Source: Patescibacteria group bacterium
GTDB taxonomy: Bacteria; Patescibacteriota; Saccharimonadia; UBA4664; SCTI01
Length of the DNA: 49,466 bases
NCBI GenBank assembly: GCA_004297735.1
Contig: SCTI01000001.1
Coordinates: 1-49,466 of the forward strand
Reading direction: 5' to 3'
Made by a program: the position numbers and the translations under genes
The notes under the pieces: model-generated
What the model was told of the DNA's origin: nothing
What the model saw: only the letters and a program-made list of their open reading frames with translations
The model's database searches: none
In this document: positions 9,549 through 15,688 of the stretch, one piece after another
How positions within the stretch are numbered: position 1 is the stretch's first letter
Layout: each line of letters opens with the position of its first letter

Positions 9549-10310
9549 ATGGAACGCCTCCAAAAACTACTTTTAGCGCCGGTAAAAATCCTTTCGCGCG
9601 GCATCCCGTCTCGACTACTACAGTCAAATATTGCAGTTGATAAAAAATACCTTGAGCGGATCAGTCGAGAGCACAAGATTGAGCGTGATTGGTATGAAAA
9701 AGTACCGAGCTTTCCTACGAACTCAGACATAATAGATGCTGCCAATAAGGGCGTGTTAGTAAAAGTAGTTGAAACCCCAGACTACTTACCTATAATGCGT
9801 TTGCGCAATCCTAAACTACACGATGAGTATCCGCCATACCTAACTAAGGCTTCAGCAGCTCTTTTAGGCCAGATTACTGCCGAATGGCGCAAGCGAATGC
9901 TGGCAGAAGGTTTTGATAAAAATGTTCGGCTGGCGGTTACTAGCCTAACTCGATCGCAGGAGTATCAAGATCAAATTGTGGCATCCGGGAAGATGGCGCT
10001 ATCGGATGGACCGCACTTGCGTGGTGAGGCTTTTGATATTGATGGCTGCGGTTATTACGTGGGAGACAAGCCGGTTAACCCTCGTCAGAAAAAGGTAGGT
10101 GGGGAGTTTCATAAAGCCTTTGAACAGATGGATGCCGGTCTTCCGGAGCCAGAACTAATCGACTATTCTGAGTATCAGCCACGAATTCATGAGATTTTGC
10201 ATGAGGTCCTTAATGACCTGATGGCTAAAAACAAACTACATTACCTACATGAGTTTCCAAATACCAACAATACGGTATTCCATGTAGCACGTAATCCAAA
10301 CGCCTCATAG
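9549..10310 (+). CDS. hypothetical protein with a LAS-type (VanY / peptidase M15-like) zinc peptidase motif
   Basis: 253 aa. The motif SDGPHLRGEAFDID fits HxxGxAxD of D-Ala-D-Ala carboxypeptidase-like enzymes. It lies 6 nt after murF. Confidence 0.5.
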   Translation: MERLQKLLLAPVKILSRGIPSRLLQSNIAVDKKYLERISREHKIERDWYEKVPSFPTNSDIIDAANKGVLVKVVETPDYLPIMRLRNPKLHDEYPPYLTKASAALLGQITAEWRKRMLAEGFDKNVRLAVTSLTRSQEYQDQIVASGKMALSDGPHLRGEAFDIDGCGYYVGDKPVNPRQKKVGGEFHKAFEQMDAGLPEPELIDYSEYQPRIHEILHEVLNDLMAKNKLHYLHEFPNTNNTVFHVARNPNAS

Positions 10311-10350: not shown

Positions 10351-13233
10351 ATGAAACGTTATAGTCCAAAGGAAATTGAACCCAAGTGGCAAAAGATTTG
10401 GGAAGAGACCAAGCTGTATCAAACCAGCGATGATGATCCTCGCCCAAAATGGTACCAACTGGAATTCTTTCCCTATCCATCTGGCGTAACCATGCATGTT
10501 GGCCACGTCCGCAACTATGTTATATCGGATGCGTTTGCTCGATATAAGCGCATGACTGGCCACAATGTGCTTCACCCGATGGGGTGGGATGCCTTTGGTT
10601 TGCCGGCCGAGAATCAAGCGATTAAGACGGGCTTGCCAGCGCGTAAATCAACCGAGCAAAACATTGCCGTGTTTAAGCGTCAGCTAAATCAAGTTGGCCT
10701 GTCGTATGACTGGAGTCGCGAGATCAACTCGTCAGAGCCAGATTACTATCGCTGGACACAGTGGCTGTTCCTATTATTCTACGAGCGCAAACTTGCCTAT
10801 AAAGCCGAGTCGGCAGTTAACTGGTGCCCACACGACAAGACCGTGCTTGCAAATGAACAAGTCATTAAAAAAGATGGTAAGAATGTTTGCGAGCGGTGTG
10901 GGCATGAAGTTGAGAAGCGCAACCTGTCGCAGTGGCTCTTTAAGATTACCGATTATGCTGATCGCTTACTGGAAGACCTTGAGAAGATTGATTGGGCCGA
11001 CAACGTAAAGGCAATGCAGCGCAACTGGATTGGGCGAAGTGTTGGCGCTGAAGTTGAGTTCAAGTTGAAAAATGGACCTCAGGATGAGCTCGTCGCCTTT
11101 ACTACTCGCGCCGACACCTTGGCGGGTGCTACCTTCCTAGTGATTTCACCCGAGTTGGCTCAGACCTGGGTCGAAAAGGGATGGAAGGCGTCAGCGGAGG
11201 CTCAAGAATATATTACGGGCGCAGTAAGTAAATCGGAAATTGAGAGGCAAGAGACCGACCGTAAGAAGACCGGAGTAAATACTGGAATTATCGCAGTCAA
11301 TCCTCTTACTAAGGAAGAAATACCGGTATGGGTGGCCGATTACGTGCTGGGTGGGTATGGCACCGGTGCGATCATGGCGGTACCGGCTCACGATCAGCGT
11401 GACAATGAGTTTGCGCAGGCCTTTGAGCTGCCAATTAAGACTGTGATTGAGCCAATTACTGGTACTCCGCAAAAAGATCCGGTGTTTCGTCGCAGTATTG
11501 TAGCGCTTGTTGAGGATCCTGAGACTGGCGATGTGCTATCTATCAAATGGAATACTCAGCACGGAGAAAACTACCTTCTAGTTGGAGGTGGGGTGGAGGA
11601 AGGCGAGGATCTAATTGAGGCTGCTCGCCGCGAAATAGCCGAGGAGACAGGTTATACCGATGTTGAGTTTATTGAACAGATGGAGAATGTACATCACAGC
11701 TACTTTGCATCTGCTAAAAATATTCCGCGTGAAATCATTGCGACTGGTCTGAAATTTAAGCTTAAGAGTCACGACAAACAACCTTTGCAGCTTGAAGCAA
11801 GCGAGCAAGGTCGAATGGTTGCAGAGTGGCTAACCCCGAAGCAGTTTAGTAACCTTGTAACGGATGAGCTACATCAAAGAGTATTTGAACGGCTAATGTT
11901 TGGCACGATTTACAGTGGCGAAGGTATCATGACGAGCTCAGGCACCTATGACGGCCTGAGCTCAAGCGAAGCGCGTAAGAAAATCACGGCCGAGGTTGGT
12001 ACTGAGCGAGTTAACTATAAGATGCGAGATTGGCTGATTAGTCGTCAGCGTTACTGGGGCGCACCGATTCCAATTATTCACTGTCCAAAGTGCGGTATCG
12101 TTCCGGTGCCAAAAGACCAGCTCCCCGTTGAACTGCCCGAGCTTGAGTCTTATCATCCAAGCGATGATGGTCGTTCTCCGCTGGCGCGAGTTAAGGAGTG
12201 GCTACATACCGAATGTCCACAGTGTGGCGGCCCAGCTGAGCGCGAGACCGATACTATGGATACATTTGTTGATTCAAGCTGGTACTTTTTGCGCTTTACG
12301 GATCCAAATAATGACAATGCACCATTTGATGGTGTAAAGGCCAATCATTGGCATCCTGTAGACACCTATGTCGGTGGTGTAGAGCACGCGGTGGCTCACC
12401 TTTTGTTCGCGCGATTCTGGACCAAAGTTCTGCATGATGCCGGGCTGATTAATTTTGAGGAACCGTTTAAACGCTTACGTAATCAGGGTATGATCGGCGG
12501 TAGCGATGGCCGCAAAATGGGTAAACGCTACGGTAACGCCGTAACCCCTGATGATTTAATTGACCAGGGTTATGGCGCAGACGCCCTACGTCTATATGAA
12601 CTATTTATTGGCCCGTATGATCAGGGGGTCGACTGGAATCCGACTGGTATTGATGGCACTAAGCGCTTTTTGAATCGGGTGTGGGCGCTGACACAAGAGC
12701 ATCTCGAGGCCCGCAATGAGGGAGAGAGTGGTGATAGTAAGCTTGAGACCGCGCTTGCGGTTACGGTTCACAAGGCCATTAAGAAAGTCACCTTCGACTT
12801 GGAGCAGTTTGGTTTTAACACCGCCATCGCCGCAATGATGGAAACGGTTAATGAGATGTATAAGCTCAAGACCGAACTGCCGCTTGGGAGCGAGGCTTGG
12901 CAGCAAAACTTGAAGTTGCTGGTACAGATTTTAGCCCCATTTGCACCCCACATTACCGAGGAGCTGTGGCAGCAGCTGGGCGGTGAGACTAGTGTGCATG
13001 TGGCCAGCTGGCCGGCCTTTGATGAAAAGCTCGTGCAGGACGAACTGGTCACGGTGGTGGTTCAGGTGAACGGTAAGGTTCGCGCTAAGCTTGAGGTTGG
13101 CGCTGATGCCGGTGAAAATCAGGTGAAGGAGCTGGCCGAGAAGAGTGACTCAGTCAAAGCCCAGCTGGAAGGCAAAGAGATTGTGAAGACAATCTATGTC
13201 CCGGGTAAGATCCTTAACCTAGTTGTAAAGTAG
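10351..13233 (+). CDS. leuS: leucine--tRNA ligase carrying an inserted Nudix hydrolase domain
   Basis: 960 aa. HIGH-type motif HVGHVRNY. Editing-domain motifs [12 protein letters not shown] and [25 protein letters not shown] is present, and the KMSKS variant is KMGKR. Codons at about 11455-11916 encode an extra roughly 150-aa segment with a perfect Nudix box. Confidence 0.95.
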   Translation: [960 protein letters not shown]

Positions 13234-14071: not shown

Positions 14072-14527
14072 ATGGCCTCTAACCGACATCTCGGTCGAAT
14101 CGTTGCCATGCAAACATTGTATGAATACGATTTTCGCGAGAATGCCGGTGCCGATGTCGATAAAGCCGCCATCATTGATCGTAACTTTGGCGAGTTTGCC
14201 AACGCGATTGATGACAAAAACTTTGTTTACGACATCGTTGAGGGCGTTCAGGCTCACCAGCAAGAAATTGACGACATGATTGGCCCGGCTGCACCAGAGT
14301 GGCCGGTTGATCAAATTGCCAAGATCGATAAGATCATTTTGCGCATTGGCGTGTATGAGCTTTTGTTTAAGCGCGAGGTTCCCCCAAAGGTGGCTATTAA
14401 TGAGGCGGTCGAACTAGCCAAGGCCTTTGGTGGCGAGAACTCTAGTAAATTTGTAAACGGCGTACTTGGTACCATTTACCGTGGAAGCGATGTCTACGAA
14501 CCAGAAGAAGAAAAGAAAGCAGACTAA
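14072..14527 (+). CDS. nusB: transcription antitermination factor NusB
   Basis: 151 aa. R-rich N-terminus followed by [10 protein letters not shown], then [23 protein letters not shown]. Confidence 0.9.
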
Positions 14528-14981
14528 ATCAAAGCGTCCCGCTCGCACCAAGGCGGTACGTGAGTTTACGGCGGGCGGAATGGTGTTCCGCCGGGTCGGC
14601 GCTAGTGATATTGATATTTTGATGATCCAGGATCGGCTGGGGCGCTGGACCATACCAAAAGGCCACGTAGAGGAGGGCGAGAGTCTGGAACAGACCGCCG
14701 TGCGTGAGATCGGCGAAGAGACCGGCTTAACCAAGCTTTCAATTAAGGATAAGCTGGATAAGATTCACTTTTTTTACCGCAAAGAGGGCAAACTGATTTA
14801 TATGACCACTCATGTGTTCTTGATTGAAGCGCTTGGTGATACCGACACATTGATACCTGAAGATAGCGAGGGTATTGTTGACGCTAAGTGGTTTGACCGG
14901 GCCGAGGCGCTGAAGCTGATTGAGTATAAAGACACCGAAAGGCTGTTTAATATGGGCTTAGAAAAGCTGGGGTTGGCATGA
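14490..14981 (+). CDS. Nudix hydrolase with a Lys/Arg-rich N-terminal tail (possible RppH-like RNA pyrophosphohydrolase)
   Basis: Perfect Nudix box [23 protein letters not shown]. The ORF is open from 14466 and ATG at 14490 is the more likely start. It overlaps the nusB end, and its stop overlaps the rnc start (ATGA). Confidence 0.8.
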
Positions 14982-15688
14982 GTAATGTAAAGGTGGAGGC
15001 GAATTTAGACGCGCTGGAGCAGGAGCTCGAGCTAGAGTTTGCCGATCGCAGTTTACTCGAACGGGCCTTCATTCATCGTTCTTACCTCAATGAGCATCCT
15101 AATTTGGGTCTGGAGCACAATGAGCGCCTGGAGTTCTTGGGTGATGCGGTCTTGGAGCTAGTCGTAACCGATTATCTGTATAAGAACTACCCCAACCCCG
15201 AAGGAGATTTAACCAACTGGCGCAGCGCCCTGGTTAAGACCGAGTCGCTAAGCGAGGTGGCCGCAAAGCTCGACTTTGATCGCTACCTGCAGCTCAGCCG
15301 CGGTGAGGCTAAGGGCAACGCTCGCAGTCGCGCTCTAATTCACGCCAACTGCGTGGAGGCATTAATTGGTGCCATTTACCTTGATCGCGGTTACGACGAA
15401 GCCAAGCGCTTTATTAGTAGCCATATTGTTAGCCGGCTGCAAAGCATCCTAGAAGAGGGCAGTTGGGTTGATCCAAAAAGCCGTTTTCAAGAACTGGCCC
15501 AGGAGCGTGAGGGGCACACGCCGCACTATAAGGTGTTAGATGAGGCCGGGCCAGATCACGACAAGGTGTTTGAGGTTGGCGTTTACGTCGGCCAACGCTT
15601 GTGCGGCAAGGGAAAGGGCTCAAGCAAGCAGGCGGCTCAACAGCAGGCGGCAGCCAACGCGCTGAAAGCTTACGAAGCCAACAAGTAG
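14978..15688 (+). CDS. rnc: ribonuclease III
   Basis: 236 aa. RNase III signature NERLEFLGDAVLELVV and a C-terminal dsRBD (GSSKQAAQQQAAANAL). Confidence 0.95.
   Translation: MSNVKVEANLDALEQELELEFADRSLLERAFIHRSYLNEHPNLGLEHNERLEFLGDAVLELVVTDYLYKNYPNPEGDLTNWRSALVKTESLSEVAAKLDFDRYLQLSRGEAKGNARSRALIHANCVEALIGAIYLDRGYDEAKRFISSHIVSRLQSILEEGSWVDPKSRFQELAQEREGHTPHYKVLDEAGPDHDKVFEVGVYVGQRLCGKGKGSSKQAAQQQAAANALKAYEANK

Follow-up and report, generated by a model that had tools for sequence, protein, structure and literature searches.

A predicted Nudix hydrolase module nested in the CP1 editing domain of a patescibacterial leucyl-tRNA synthetase

The leuS gene of a Patescibacteria group bacterium (Saccharimonadia, assembly GCA_004297735.1) was analyzed within a stretch of 49,466 nucleotides (contig SCTI01000001.1, hereafter called the window, position 1 being its first letter). 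It codes for a leucyl-tRNA synthetase (LeuRS) of 960 amino acids (aa) and carries, inside the connecting domain CP1 which edits mischarged tRNA, a complete additional domain of the Nudix hydrolase type. An in-frame Nudix insertion in this protein had been proposed in an earlier note made from the letters of the window, and the open reading frame (ORF), the TIGR00396 match and the Pfam domains all confirm it. Pfam recognizes a class I catalytic domain, the editing domain PF13603, an anticodon-binding domain and a NUDIX domain. The bacterial LeuRS equivalog TIGR00396 is matched with 1035.3 bits (cut-off 548.4) in two stretches, which flank the insert.

The leuS gene and its Nudix module

The LeuRS body is of the ordinary bacterial kind. 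A full-length AlphaFold2 (AF2) model, built with 103 aligned homologues, has a mean predicted local distance difference test score (pLDDT) of 91.5 and a predicted template modelling score (pTM) of 0.80, with block pLDDT values of about 87–97 over the insert and both junctions. It superposes on the LeuRS structures of Thermus thermophilus, Escherichia coli and Neisseria gonorrhoeae, none of which contains a Nudix-like domain. In the HIGH motif, which reads HVGH, G51 and H52 are invariant among the 103 homologues and H49 is conserved in at least 90% of them. The threonine-rich editing motif TTRADT (T251, T252, D255 and T256 invariant) has its counterpart in T247TRPDT252 of the Streptococcus pneumoniae enzyme (Hu et al., 2013, PMC3747510). 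The GTG loop of the editing site lies at aa 337–339, and the key editing-site residues are invariant in all 103 sequences, including H347, D348, R350 and D351 of the HDQRD motif. The catalytic aspartate is D351, equivalent to E. coli D345 and S. pneumoniae D347 (PMC3747510), whereas D348 corresponds to E. coli D342, a small correction to the earlier framing. Both lysines of the KMSKS-type loop (K722, K725) are invariant as well. With its synthetic and editing motifs intact, the protein is predicted to be a working bacterial LeuRS. The KMSKS loop itself varies among 120 close relatives, of which 86 read KMSKS, 18 KMGKR as here and 12 KFSKS.

The NUDIX family (PF00293) was found at aa 379–508 with an E-value of 2.3e-14 and 54.0 bits, compared to a gathering cut-off of 21.1, so the profile check suggested in the earlier note gave a significant result. 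The match to PF13603 breaks off at position 147 of the 185 profile positions (aa 373), right where NUDIX begins. The segment 11455–11916 (aa 369–522), originally named as the insert, reaches 58.5 bits on NUDIX when scanned alone. Its limits were refined with insert-less relatives (P0009, with 88% identity in its best BLASTP segment, P0025, P0092 and P0120), where only 4–10 residues lie between the conserved '...PIKxVIE' and 'GEG...', which places the insert at aa ~373–521 (Table 1). The Nudix box was described before as a letter-perfect fit to the consensus, and it is one.

A model of the insert alone (pLDDT 93.8, pTM 0.88) shows the order of strands and helices typical for Nudix enzymes. Searched against the PDB with Foldseek, it gave 555 matches at E ≤ 1e-3, and the top 50 listed are all Nudix enzymes with a probability of 1.00. 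The predicted fold of the module is an alpha/beta/alpha sandwich of the Nudix type; a non-Nudix fold would have refuted the earlier note.

Two other origins of the insert were considered and rejected. The G+C content over the insert is 0.47–0.50 and matches the remainder of the gene, and this uniformity along the gene speaks against a foreign origin by composition. An intein or mobile element is rejected since the junctions VIEP|ITGT and TIY|SGEG are without His-Asn, the whole insert folds as a Nudix domain and no flanking repeats were found at the junctions.

Alignment to solved LeuRS sequences places the insert between residues ~375 and 377 of T. thermophilus LeuRS. In the E. coli structure, the aligned flanks end at chain residue 386 and resume at 397, corresponding to ~366 and ~377 in native numbering. 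The AF2 model gives the order helix 349–357, strand 366–371, Nudix module 378–517, helix 538–549 and strand 550–556. The module is therefore nested in the I4b loop between the CP1 helices alpha2 and alpha3, where it replaces a short variable loop. I4b is a long loop which is not conserved among bacteria; in S. pneumoniae its Thr373 lies about 4 Å from the ligand in the editing site, and the eukaryal/archaeal equivalent, the I4ae helix, lies over the editing pocket's opening (Hu et al., 2013, PMC3747510). As the Thr-rich motif and the Asp pair both show a numbering offset of +4 to S. pneumoniae, Thr373 should correspond approximately to residue 377 (P377), directly before the first Nudix strand. 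Based on the sequence register, the order of secondary structures and the published structure of another species, the module probably sits at the rim of the editing pocket. It shares with the known I4b and I4ae elements the insertion point between alpha2 and alpha3, about 25 residues past the catalytic aspartate, at a site which is known to vary and which borders or covers the pocket (PMC3747510). However, those elements are a loop or a single helix without enzymatic function, whereas here a complete enzyme domain of ~149 aa with its own active site is present, which in some LeuRS occurs in two or three copies.

Table 1. Features of leuS in the window, and related proteins and loci named in the text
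Feature	Position in the window	Strand	Basis
leuS, 960-aa bacterial-type LeuRS with insert	10351..13233	+	ORF, TIGR00396, AF2 model
HIGH motif HVGH (aa 49-52), synthetic active site	10495..10506	+	motif position
CP1 N-terminal part (aa 226-372), up to the I4b loop	11026..11466	+	PF13603 aa 224-373 (profile 1-147 of 185); aligns with T. thermophilus 218-375
Thr-rich CP1 editing motif TTRADT (aa 251-256)	11101..11118	+	motif position
HDQRD (aa 347-351), editing-site Asp pair	11389..11403	+	motif position
Nudix module (aa 373-521), ~149 aa, nested in the CP1 I4b loop	11467..11913	+	insert-less relatives, Pfam, AF2, Foldseek
Nudix box [23 protein letters not shown] (aa 413-435), catalytic/metal-binding motif	11587..11655	+	exact fit to GX5EX7REUXEEXGU
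X-loop strand YFASAK (aa 451-456), conserved Tyr451 and Lys456, candidate substrate-base contact	11701..11718	+	conservation, hhalign
CP1 C-terminal part (aa 522-560), helix alpha3 and strand back to the catalytic core (VNYKMRDW)	11914..12030	+	aligns with T. thermophilus 377-440; AF2
KMSKS-type loop, reads KMGKR (aa 722-726)	12514..12528	+	motif position
Three-module LeuRS: P0125, P0126, P0139
Two-module LeuRS: P0127, P0129, P0131, P0132, P0138, P0228, P0232, P0006, P0011
Gut-genome loci with LeuRS::Nudix: L013-L015, L017, L019-L020, L022-L023, L025-L030, L032-L035, L037-L040, L048, L052, L054-L055
Stand-alone member P0276: 13 nt downstream of argS
Stand-alone member P0288: 87 nt upstream of thrS, then miaA
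Stand-alone member P0152: 2 nt upstream of insert-bearing leuS
Stand-alone member P0141: between tsaD and a Val/Ile-type synthetase gene
Stand-alone member P0176: co-directional array from metS to leuS
Stand-alone member P0168: two genes from proS
Stand-alone member P0170: directly after fpg
Stand-alone member P0185: no synthetase-type neighbour

Conservation, distribution and exchange of the module

Conservation of the module was counted over 114 insert-bearing homologues. In the Nudix box, G413, E428, E431 and E432 are found in all of them, G434 in 113, R427 in 110, and E419 and Y435 in 109 each. Outside the box, W400, Y451, K456, E485, W493 and H508 are each conserved in 101–113 sequences, if phenylalanine at position 451 is counted; this position is tyrosine in 100 and phenylalanine in eight homologues, and K456 is kept in 109. 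The coding DNA was further compared with the two nearest relatives carrying the same module type. Between leuS and the gene of P0008 the module shows 0.037 non-synonymous (pN) and 0.60 synonymous (pS) differences per site, which corresponds to a dN/dS ratio of ~0.03, and the regions of the LeuRS body range from 0.02 to 0.06 in the same type of comparison. Purifying selection on the module is as strong as on LeuRS itself. The claim that the catalytic glutamates are kept and that the insert is no decayed relic is well supported by the near-invariant box and this ratio. Judged by its sequence and its models, the module looks like a catalytically competent, independently folded Nudix pyrophosphohydrolase.

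Degenerate boxes at the same site were observed in the loci L016, L038, L049, L053 and L054 and in the proteins P0031, P0032, P0038, P0050 and P0124. For example, the RE pair is changed to RK or AE and the first glutamate to glutamine or leucine. In these lineages the fold may be retained for a non-catalytic role.

When the whole protein was used as query, 114 of the 120 best matches, 51–86% identical, carried PF00293 together with the LeuRS domains. The insert-bearing homologues are mostly 950–985 aa long, with a few of up to ~1,130 aa, and come from NCBI, JGI, ENA and Logan assemblies. Those with names belong to metagenome-assembled genomes (MAGs) of Candidatus Saccharimonadales, and their annotation goes no further than 'leucine--tRNA ligase' or 'class I tRNA ligase family protein'. 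A scan of leuS loci, with one genome per species and 80 loci kept, gave a match to the insert profile at the same LeuRS site in 58. Among these are Saccharibacteria, Moran-, Nomura- and Magasanikbacteria and unclassified Patescibacteria, as well as about 30 gut MAGs of low G+C content (26–34%) from independent submitters, which are labelled Bacilli, Erysipelotrichaceae, Tenericutes or Firmicutes. When 1.84 billion representatives were searched exhaustively with a profile, 84 clusters passed E ≤ 1e-30 and 703 passed E ≤ 1e-10. A search with the insert alone had returned just two fragmentary proteins; the rarity this seemed to indicate was due to a word-index limit and is refuted by the full-length and profile searches. 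The survey of orthologues proposed in the earlier note thus recovered the same insertion in Saccharibacteria, other Patescibacteria and gut Bacilli.

With 150–166 bits on the insert profile, the modules of the gut MAGs, whose taxonomy is that of the record titles only, score no lower than those of Saccharibacteria. On the neighbour-joining tree, the LeuRS of these MAGs form one clade beside the Patescibacteria LeuRS, which suggests horizontal transfer of leuS between Patescibacteria and gut Bacilli.

A neighbour-joining tree was calculated from the LeuRS body, the insert being masked. In this tree, sequences of Saccharibacteria lacking the insert are dispersed among those that bear one, and the insert-less P0009 adjoins the LeuRS studied here. 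The simplest reading is one old insertion followed by several clean losses. Fission of the gene was looked for in the insert-less relatives, and no family member was found within ±6 kb of insert-less leuS in the Saccharibacteria loci.

The module diverges more than its surroundings, with a mean pairwise identity of 0.39 compared to 0.61–0.62 for the catalytic and CP1 regions. Among pairs with 80–90% body identity the insert identity is bimodal, as 45 pairs lie at 0.2–0.5 and 106 at 0.8–1.0 with a dip at 0.5–0.6, and up to four discrete module types occur inside one clade of 75% body identity. For example, the LeuRS studied here shares 86% identity with P0007 in the body, compared to 33% in the module. 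This pattern fits replacement of the module by recombination. P0006 and P0011, two close relatives, contain the matching module type and in addition a second module, ~35% identical, about 40 residues downstream; further LeuRS with two or three modules are listed in Table 1. Due to its clean loss, its duplication and its replacement by divergent alleles, the module is taken as not needed for aminoacylation as such.

The gene is also mosaic outside of the insert. P0008 (L095:5442-8309) is 93% identical to this LeuRS in the module, 76–84% in CP1, core and C-terminal part and 57% in the N-terminal Rossmann part (10351–11025), which indicates within-gene recombination among related Saccharibacteria. 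In the multi-module LeuRS the modules occupy the N-terminal CP1 hinge, the I4b loop and a site about 40 residues downstream, and often a copy with an intact box is paired with a degenerate one ('GQT...AE'; RE changed to RK or AE, E to Q). Such pairs could form an intramolecular pseudo-dimer.

The subfamily of the insert is not restricted to LeuRS. It also comprises small stand-alone proteins of 155–200 aa, which are encoded beside genes for aminoacyl-tRNA synthetases (aaRS) and tRNA modification. The genomic context was sampled for eight of them (Table 1). Four lie immediately adjacent to an aaRS gene (argS, thrS, leuS and the Val/Ile-type gene) and six within two genes of one. With about 20 aaRS genes in a genome of fewer than 1,000 genes, adjacency by chance is roughly 5%, which is an estimate and not a computed statistic; on this rough estimate the stand-alone members adjoin aaRS genes far above chance. 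The Nudix genes adjoining ileS in L082 and leuS in L091 were rejected as members of the family, as they reach only 26–36 bits on the insert profile.

Other hydrolases are inserted in related LeuRS as well. A HAD hydrolase was found in P0155, alpha/beta serine hydrolases in P0194, P0204 and P0221, one of these proteins showing two matched stretches, and a further alpha/beta serine hydrolase is present in the precomputed Pfam annotation of P0084. P0202 carries a Ham1/ITPase domain ahead of the anticodon-binding domain and P0015 an ASCH domain at the N-terminal CP1 hinge. All LeuRS with HAD, alpha/beta-hydrolase, Ham1 or ASCH inserts also carry the CP1 Nudix module. It appears that LeuRS in these lineages generally serves as a scaffold into which hydrolases are inserted.

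A comparable arrangement was observed for another synthetase. In L082 (7387–10890), and also in L081 and L083, an IleRS-type synthetase of 1,167 aa contains a His_Phos_1 domain inserted at aa 506–669. In L082 its gene is directly followed by a Nudix gene of another subfamily, and the cluster includes argS, a stand-alone member of the insert family and genes for dUTPase, dNK/Tmk, NTPase_I-T and PNPOx.

Possible substrates and role of the module

The aaRS are the main cellular source of diadenosine tetraphosphate (Ap4A). As the most likely mechanism, it is proposed that the module would hydrolyze adenine dinucleoside polyphosphates of the Ap4A type (ApnA) or closely related adenylate by-products of aaRS chemistry. 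The glutamates of the Nudix box would catalyze this together with Mg2+, Tyr451 would stack the adenine, and tethering to an abundant, constitutive synthetase would hold the clearing or signal-ending activity stoichiometric with, and near to, the source of the nucleotide. The structural and evolutionary parts of this reading are close to certain. The assignment of an Ap4A-type substrate is tentative and stands somewhat below an even chance, and the reading as a whole, a working LeuRS with a competent Nudix domain in CP1 acting as a tethered Ap4A-type hydrolase, is about evenly balanced between right and wrong. The clearing of Ap4A or adenylates suggested in the earlier note thus stays conjectural, with some support from the alignment of Tyr451 to NUDT2 and from the stand-alone members beside aaRS genes.

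Downstream of the box, the X-loop contains a conserved tyrosine (Tyr87 in the structure of human Ap4A hydrolase) which stacks the adenine and tracks ApnA activity (Srouji et al., 2017, PMC5389931, restating the marker of Dunn et al., 1999). In the structures 1XSA and 1XSC the numbering is that of native NUDT2 plus five, so that Tyr87 is Tyr82. When the family profile was aligned to NUDT2 with hhalign (probability 91.8%, 115 columns), Y451 fell on Tyr82 and K456 on Lys87. A profile of 30 diverse modules was matched in the PDB first to 2AZW (1.9e-11) and then to the lupin Ap4A hydrolase (5.5e-11) with most of the length covered, and the best Foldseek match was again 2AZW (6.8e-10), followed by the Aquifex aeolicus Ap4A hydrolase. 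The other top fold matches are RppH with Ap4A, nucleotides or RNA, a putative CTP pyrophosphohydrolase, YmfB, NudI, the T. thermophilus Ap6A hydrolase, NUDT2 and MutT1. With the known ApnA hydrolases (NUDT2, the lupin and A. aeolicus enzymes and T. thermophilus Ndx1) the module shares a compact single-domain Nudix fold, an intact box and the X-loop tyrosine. However, the identity is only ~17–23%, no family-level model reaches its threshold, and the known enzymes are free-standing, none being embedded in a synthetase.

Several points weigh against this assignment. LeuRS is only a moderate producer of Ap4A, and ArgRS, the neighbour of one stand-alone member, forms no Ap4A without tRNA. The substrate specificity of Nudix enzymes is hard to predict from sequence, and the aromatic residue of the X-loop is not exclusive to ApnA hydrolases. 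The E-values of the fold matches are nearly flat over ApnA hydrolases, RppH, CTP/NTP pyrophosphatases, MutT1 and ADP-ribose pyrophosphatases. 2AZW, the best match in both sequence and fold, is a protein without known function, and no NCBIfam equivalog scored above its cut-off for the module. Lineages with a degenerate box keep the module, so catalysis is not always required. The placement at the pocket rim depends on register, secondary-structure order and the structure from another species. Finally, the stand-alone member beside fpg has a MutM/MutT-like context, and the Ham1 and HAD inserts of related LeuRS are general nucleotide house-cleaning enzymes, which favours a role unconnected with the synthetase.

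Two of the searches were uninformative for the choice of a subfamily. The PDB matches of the single sequence cover the box only, the best being a putative CTP pyrophosphohydrolase, and the NCBIfam matches are below threshold. The Enterococcus faecalis MutT/nudix protein 2AZW is similar over nearly the full length of the profile, including the C-terminal helix with its histidine, but as a stand-alone structural-genomics protein of 17% identity it provides no functional guidance.

The main rival to an Ap4A-type hydrolase is a general sanitizer of the nucleotide pool, acting on 8-oxo-(d)GTP, CTP or other nucleoside triphosphates (NTP) without any mechanistic tie to LeuRS. In a small, regulator-poor genome, the tolerant surface loop of an essential and constitutive protein would secure its expression. 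Such a role is on the whole unlikely, yet it would account for Ham1/ITPase, HAD and alpha/beta hydrolases at other sites of related LeuRS, for the His_Phos_1 domain in IleRS and for the stand-alone members found among dUTPase, dNK/Tmk, NTPase_I-T, YfbR and TatD genes, one of them after fpg. It is also in line with the repeated loss of the module while LeuRS is kept, with the CTP pyrophosphohydrolase as best single-sequence match and with NudI, YmfB and MutT1 among the fold matches. However, it leaves unexplained why four of eight stand-alone members directly adjoin an aaRS gene, both classes being represented, why the module sits nested at the editing-pocket rim and is not a terminal fusion, and why it was duplicated two- and threefold within LeuRS. 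Moreover, the MutT 8-oxo-dGTP diphosphatase equivalog TIGR00586 is matched with only 17.1 bits, far below its cut-off of 97.9.

Less probable still is an enzyme acting on RNA or tRNA ends, i.e., an RppH-like pyrophosphohydrolase or decapping enzyme which CP1 would hold near the acceptor end of the tRNA. On tRNA(Leu) or another RNA, such an enzyme would target a 5′-triphosphate, an NAD or Np4 cap, or a modified 3′ end. E. coli RppH (NudH/YgdP), an RNA 5′-pyrophosphohydrolase which also hydrolyzes Np4A caps and ApnA, contributes a large share of the top fold matches with its RNA and Ap4A complexes. It has the best hhalign probability (95%), restricted to the box region, and its models are the top NCBIfam matches. 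The insertion site borders the pocket receiving the tRNA 3′ end, and stand-alone members occur near tsaD, miaA and a SpoU methylase gene. Nevertheless, the RppH equivalogs (PRK00714) reach at best 31.1 bits and thus stay far below the cut-off of 116, the alignment goes no further than the box, RNase P leaves mature tRNA with a 5′ monophosphate, and the separate Nudix gene between nusB and rnc is the more obvious RppH candidate.

A non-catalytic insert is improbable. It would act as an enlarged I4 'cap' which tunes the access to the editing pocket, or bind a nucleotide ligand to tune LeuRS, in analogy to the eukaryal/archaeal I4ae helix and to ligand-sensing Nudix domains. The I4 site itself, whose eukaryal/archaeal counterpart covers the editing pocket, is compatible with such a function, as are the failure of the box motif in five of the 114 homologues and in the five loci named above, and the pairing of intact with degenerate copies in multi-module LeuRS. 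Against this, all catalytic box residues are kept here and in 109 of the 114 homologues, the dN/dS ratio is ~0.03, and close relatives function with a loop of 4–10 residues, so that no cap is required.

It is very improbable that the inserted hydrolases are detoxification cassettes which inactivate antibiotics mimicking aminoacyl-adenylates, or toxin-modified tRNA ends, and whose turnover reflects an arms race. LeuRS is a known target of nucleotide-mimic inhibitors, and the toxic moiety of agrocin 84 and benzoxaborole adducts are present in LeuRS structures. The cassette-like, discontinuous evolution, with many module types swapped among near-identical LeuRS bodies, and the several hydrolase classes inserted in LeuRS and IleRS would fit as well. 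This case is purely circumstantial, however; no defence or toxin genes were seen near leuS in the loci examined, the mosaic structure in the N-terminal part compared to P0008 shows that recombination is not specific for the insert, and strong purifying selection acts inside a module type. An assembly chimera or a mis-called frame joining a Nudix gene to leuS, which the earlier note had wished to see excluded, has practically no probability left and is already refuted by the comparative data, since the reading frame is uninterrupted over both junctions, the composition is uniform, the full-length AF2 model has high confidence at both junctions, and more than 100 independent assemblies, produced by several pipelines, share this architecture at the same site, as do 58 of the 80 loci.

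A broader reading, in its entirety a long shot, is that in Patescibacteria and some allied low-GC Bacilli the class Ia synthetases LeuRS and IleRS serve as scaffolds for exchangeable hydrolase cassettes, with the Nudix module being no passenger but acting in cis on adenylated species or tRNA ends at CP1. The cassettes may comprise Nudix, HAD, alpha/beta-hydrolase, His-phosphatase, Ham1 and ASCH domains, located at the CP1 hinges and the editing-pocket rim. Their substrates may be mis-activated aminoacyl-adenylates, Ap4A-type by-products, Np4-capped or toxin-modified tRNA ends, or adenylate-mimic antibiotics. If this is true, a second, nucleotide-directed layer of quality control or self-defence would be built into the synthetase, and the swapping of cassettes would record selection by changing chemical threats.

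Synthetases with an extra catalytic domain are known, e.g., ProRS with INS/YbaK-type editing domains and AlaRS and ThrRS with their editing modules. IleRS with a GNAT domain (NCBIfam NF040702) is likewise a housekeeping synthetase with an added catalytic domain. In these cases, however, the added domains edit aminoacyl-tRNA or are terminal fusions, whereas here a pyrophosphohydrolase is nested in an existing editing domain. The accessory domains of aaRS are well catalogued, and to our knowledge none is a Nudix hydrolase. A full-text literature search, which did not cover subscription-only papers, found neither a published LeuRS-Nudix fusion nor hydrolase inserts in Patescibacteria synthetases, in line with the earlier statement that no such fusion had been described. 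The architecture is visible in precomputed Pfam annotations, widespread in public data and present in hundreds of uncultured bacteria, so the novelty holds for the literature and not in the sense of a feature unique to one genome. The fold, the variable site and the synthetase are each known, and it is their combination and its evolutionary behaviour which are apparently undescribed.

A nucleotide pyrophosphohydrolase nested in the proofreading domain of LeuRS represents a new synthetase architecture, which is under strong selection and is conserved in much of the tree of uncultured bacteria. If the substrate is of the Ap4A type, it would be a natural fusion of producer and destroyer for a molecule long debated as alarmone or by-product, and a ready-made system for testing their coupling. 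Should its substrates instead be adenylates or tRNA ends at the editing pocket, the module would add a new kind of quality control to translation. The insertion site also borders the pocket which is targeted by benzoxaborole inhibitors of LeuRS. The wider pattern of hydrolase inserts in LeuRS and IleRS, stand-alone paralogues by aaRS genes and exchange of cassettes illustrates how reduced genomes load housekeeping chemistry onto essential proteins.

Neighbouring genes

A free-standing Nudix gene is located downstream of leuS at 14466/14490–14981, with ATG 14490 as the probable start. Its product reaches 70.5 bits on NUDIX, and the gene overlaps the end of nusB (14072–14527) and the start of rnc (14978–15688). 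The earlier note had pointed to this second gene and its very similar box; both were confirmed, while the resemblance is confined to the box region (20 of 46 identities), and the gene represents a separate syntenic paralogue. On the insert profile it scores ~50 bits, compared to 150–200 bits for true modules. The array leuS-yceD-rpmF-nusB-nudix-rnc is conserved in Saccharibacteria loci with and without the insert. Due to the likeness limited to the box and to this synteny, an origin of the insert as a recent duplicate of the free-standing gene is rejected. Located between nusB and rnc, in a context of RNA processing, the free-standing gene plausibly encodes an enzyme of the RppH type.

An Rfam scan of the entire window identified only three tRNAs. 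Upstream of leuS, a gene for a DUF5715 protein of 253 aa lies between murF and leuS (9549–10310). In L094 and L095 the same slot holds a gene of 196 aa, with a weak match to Peptidase_C39_2 in L094. As the genes between murF and leuS differ, this slot is variable in an otherwise conserved array.

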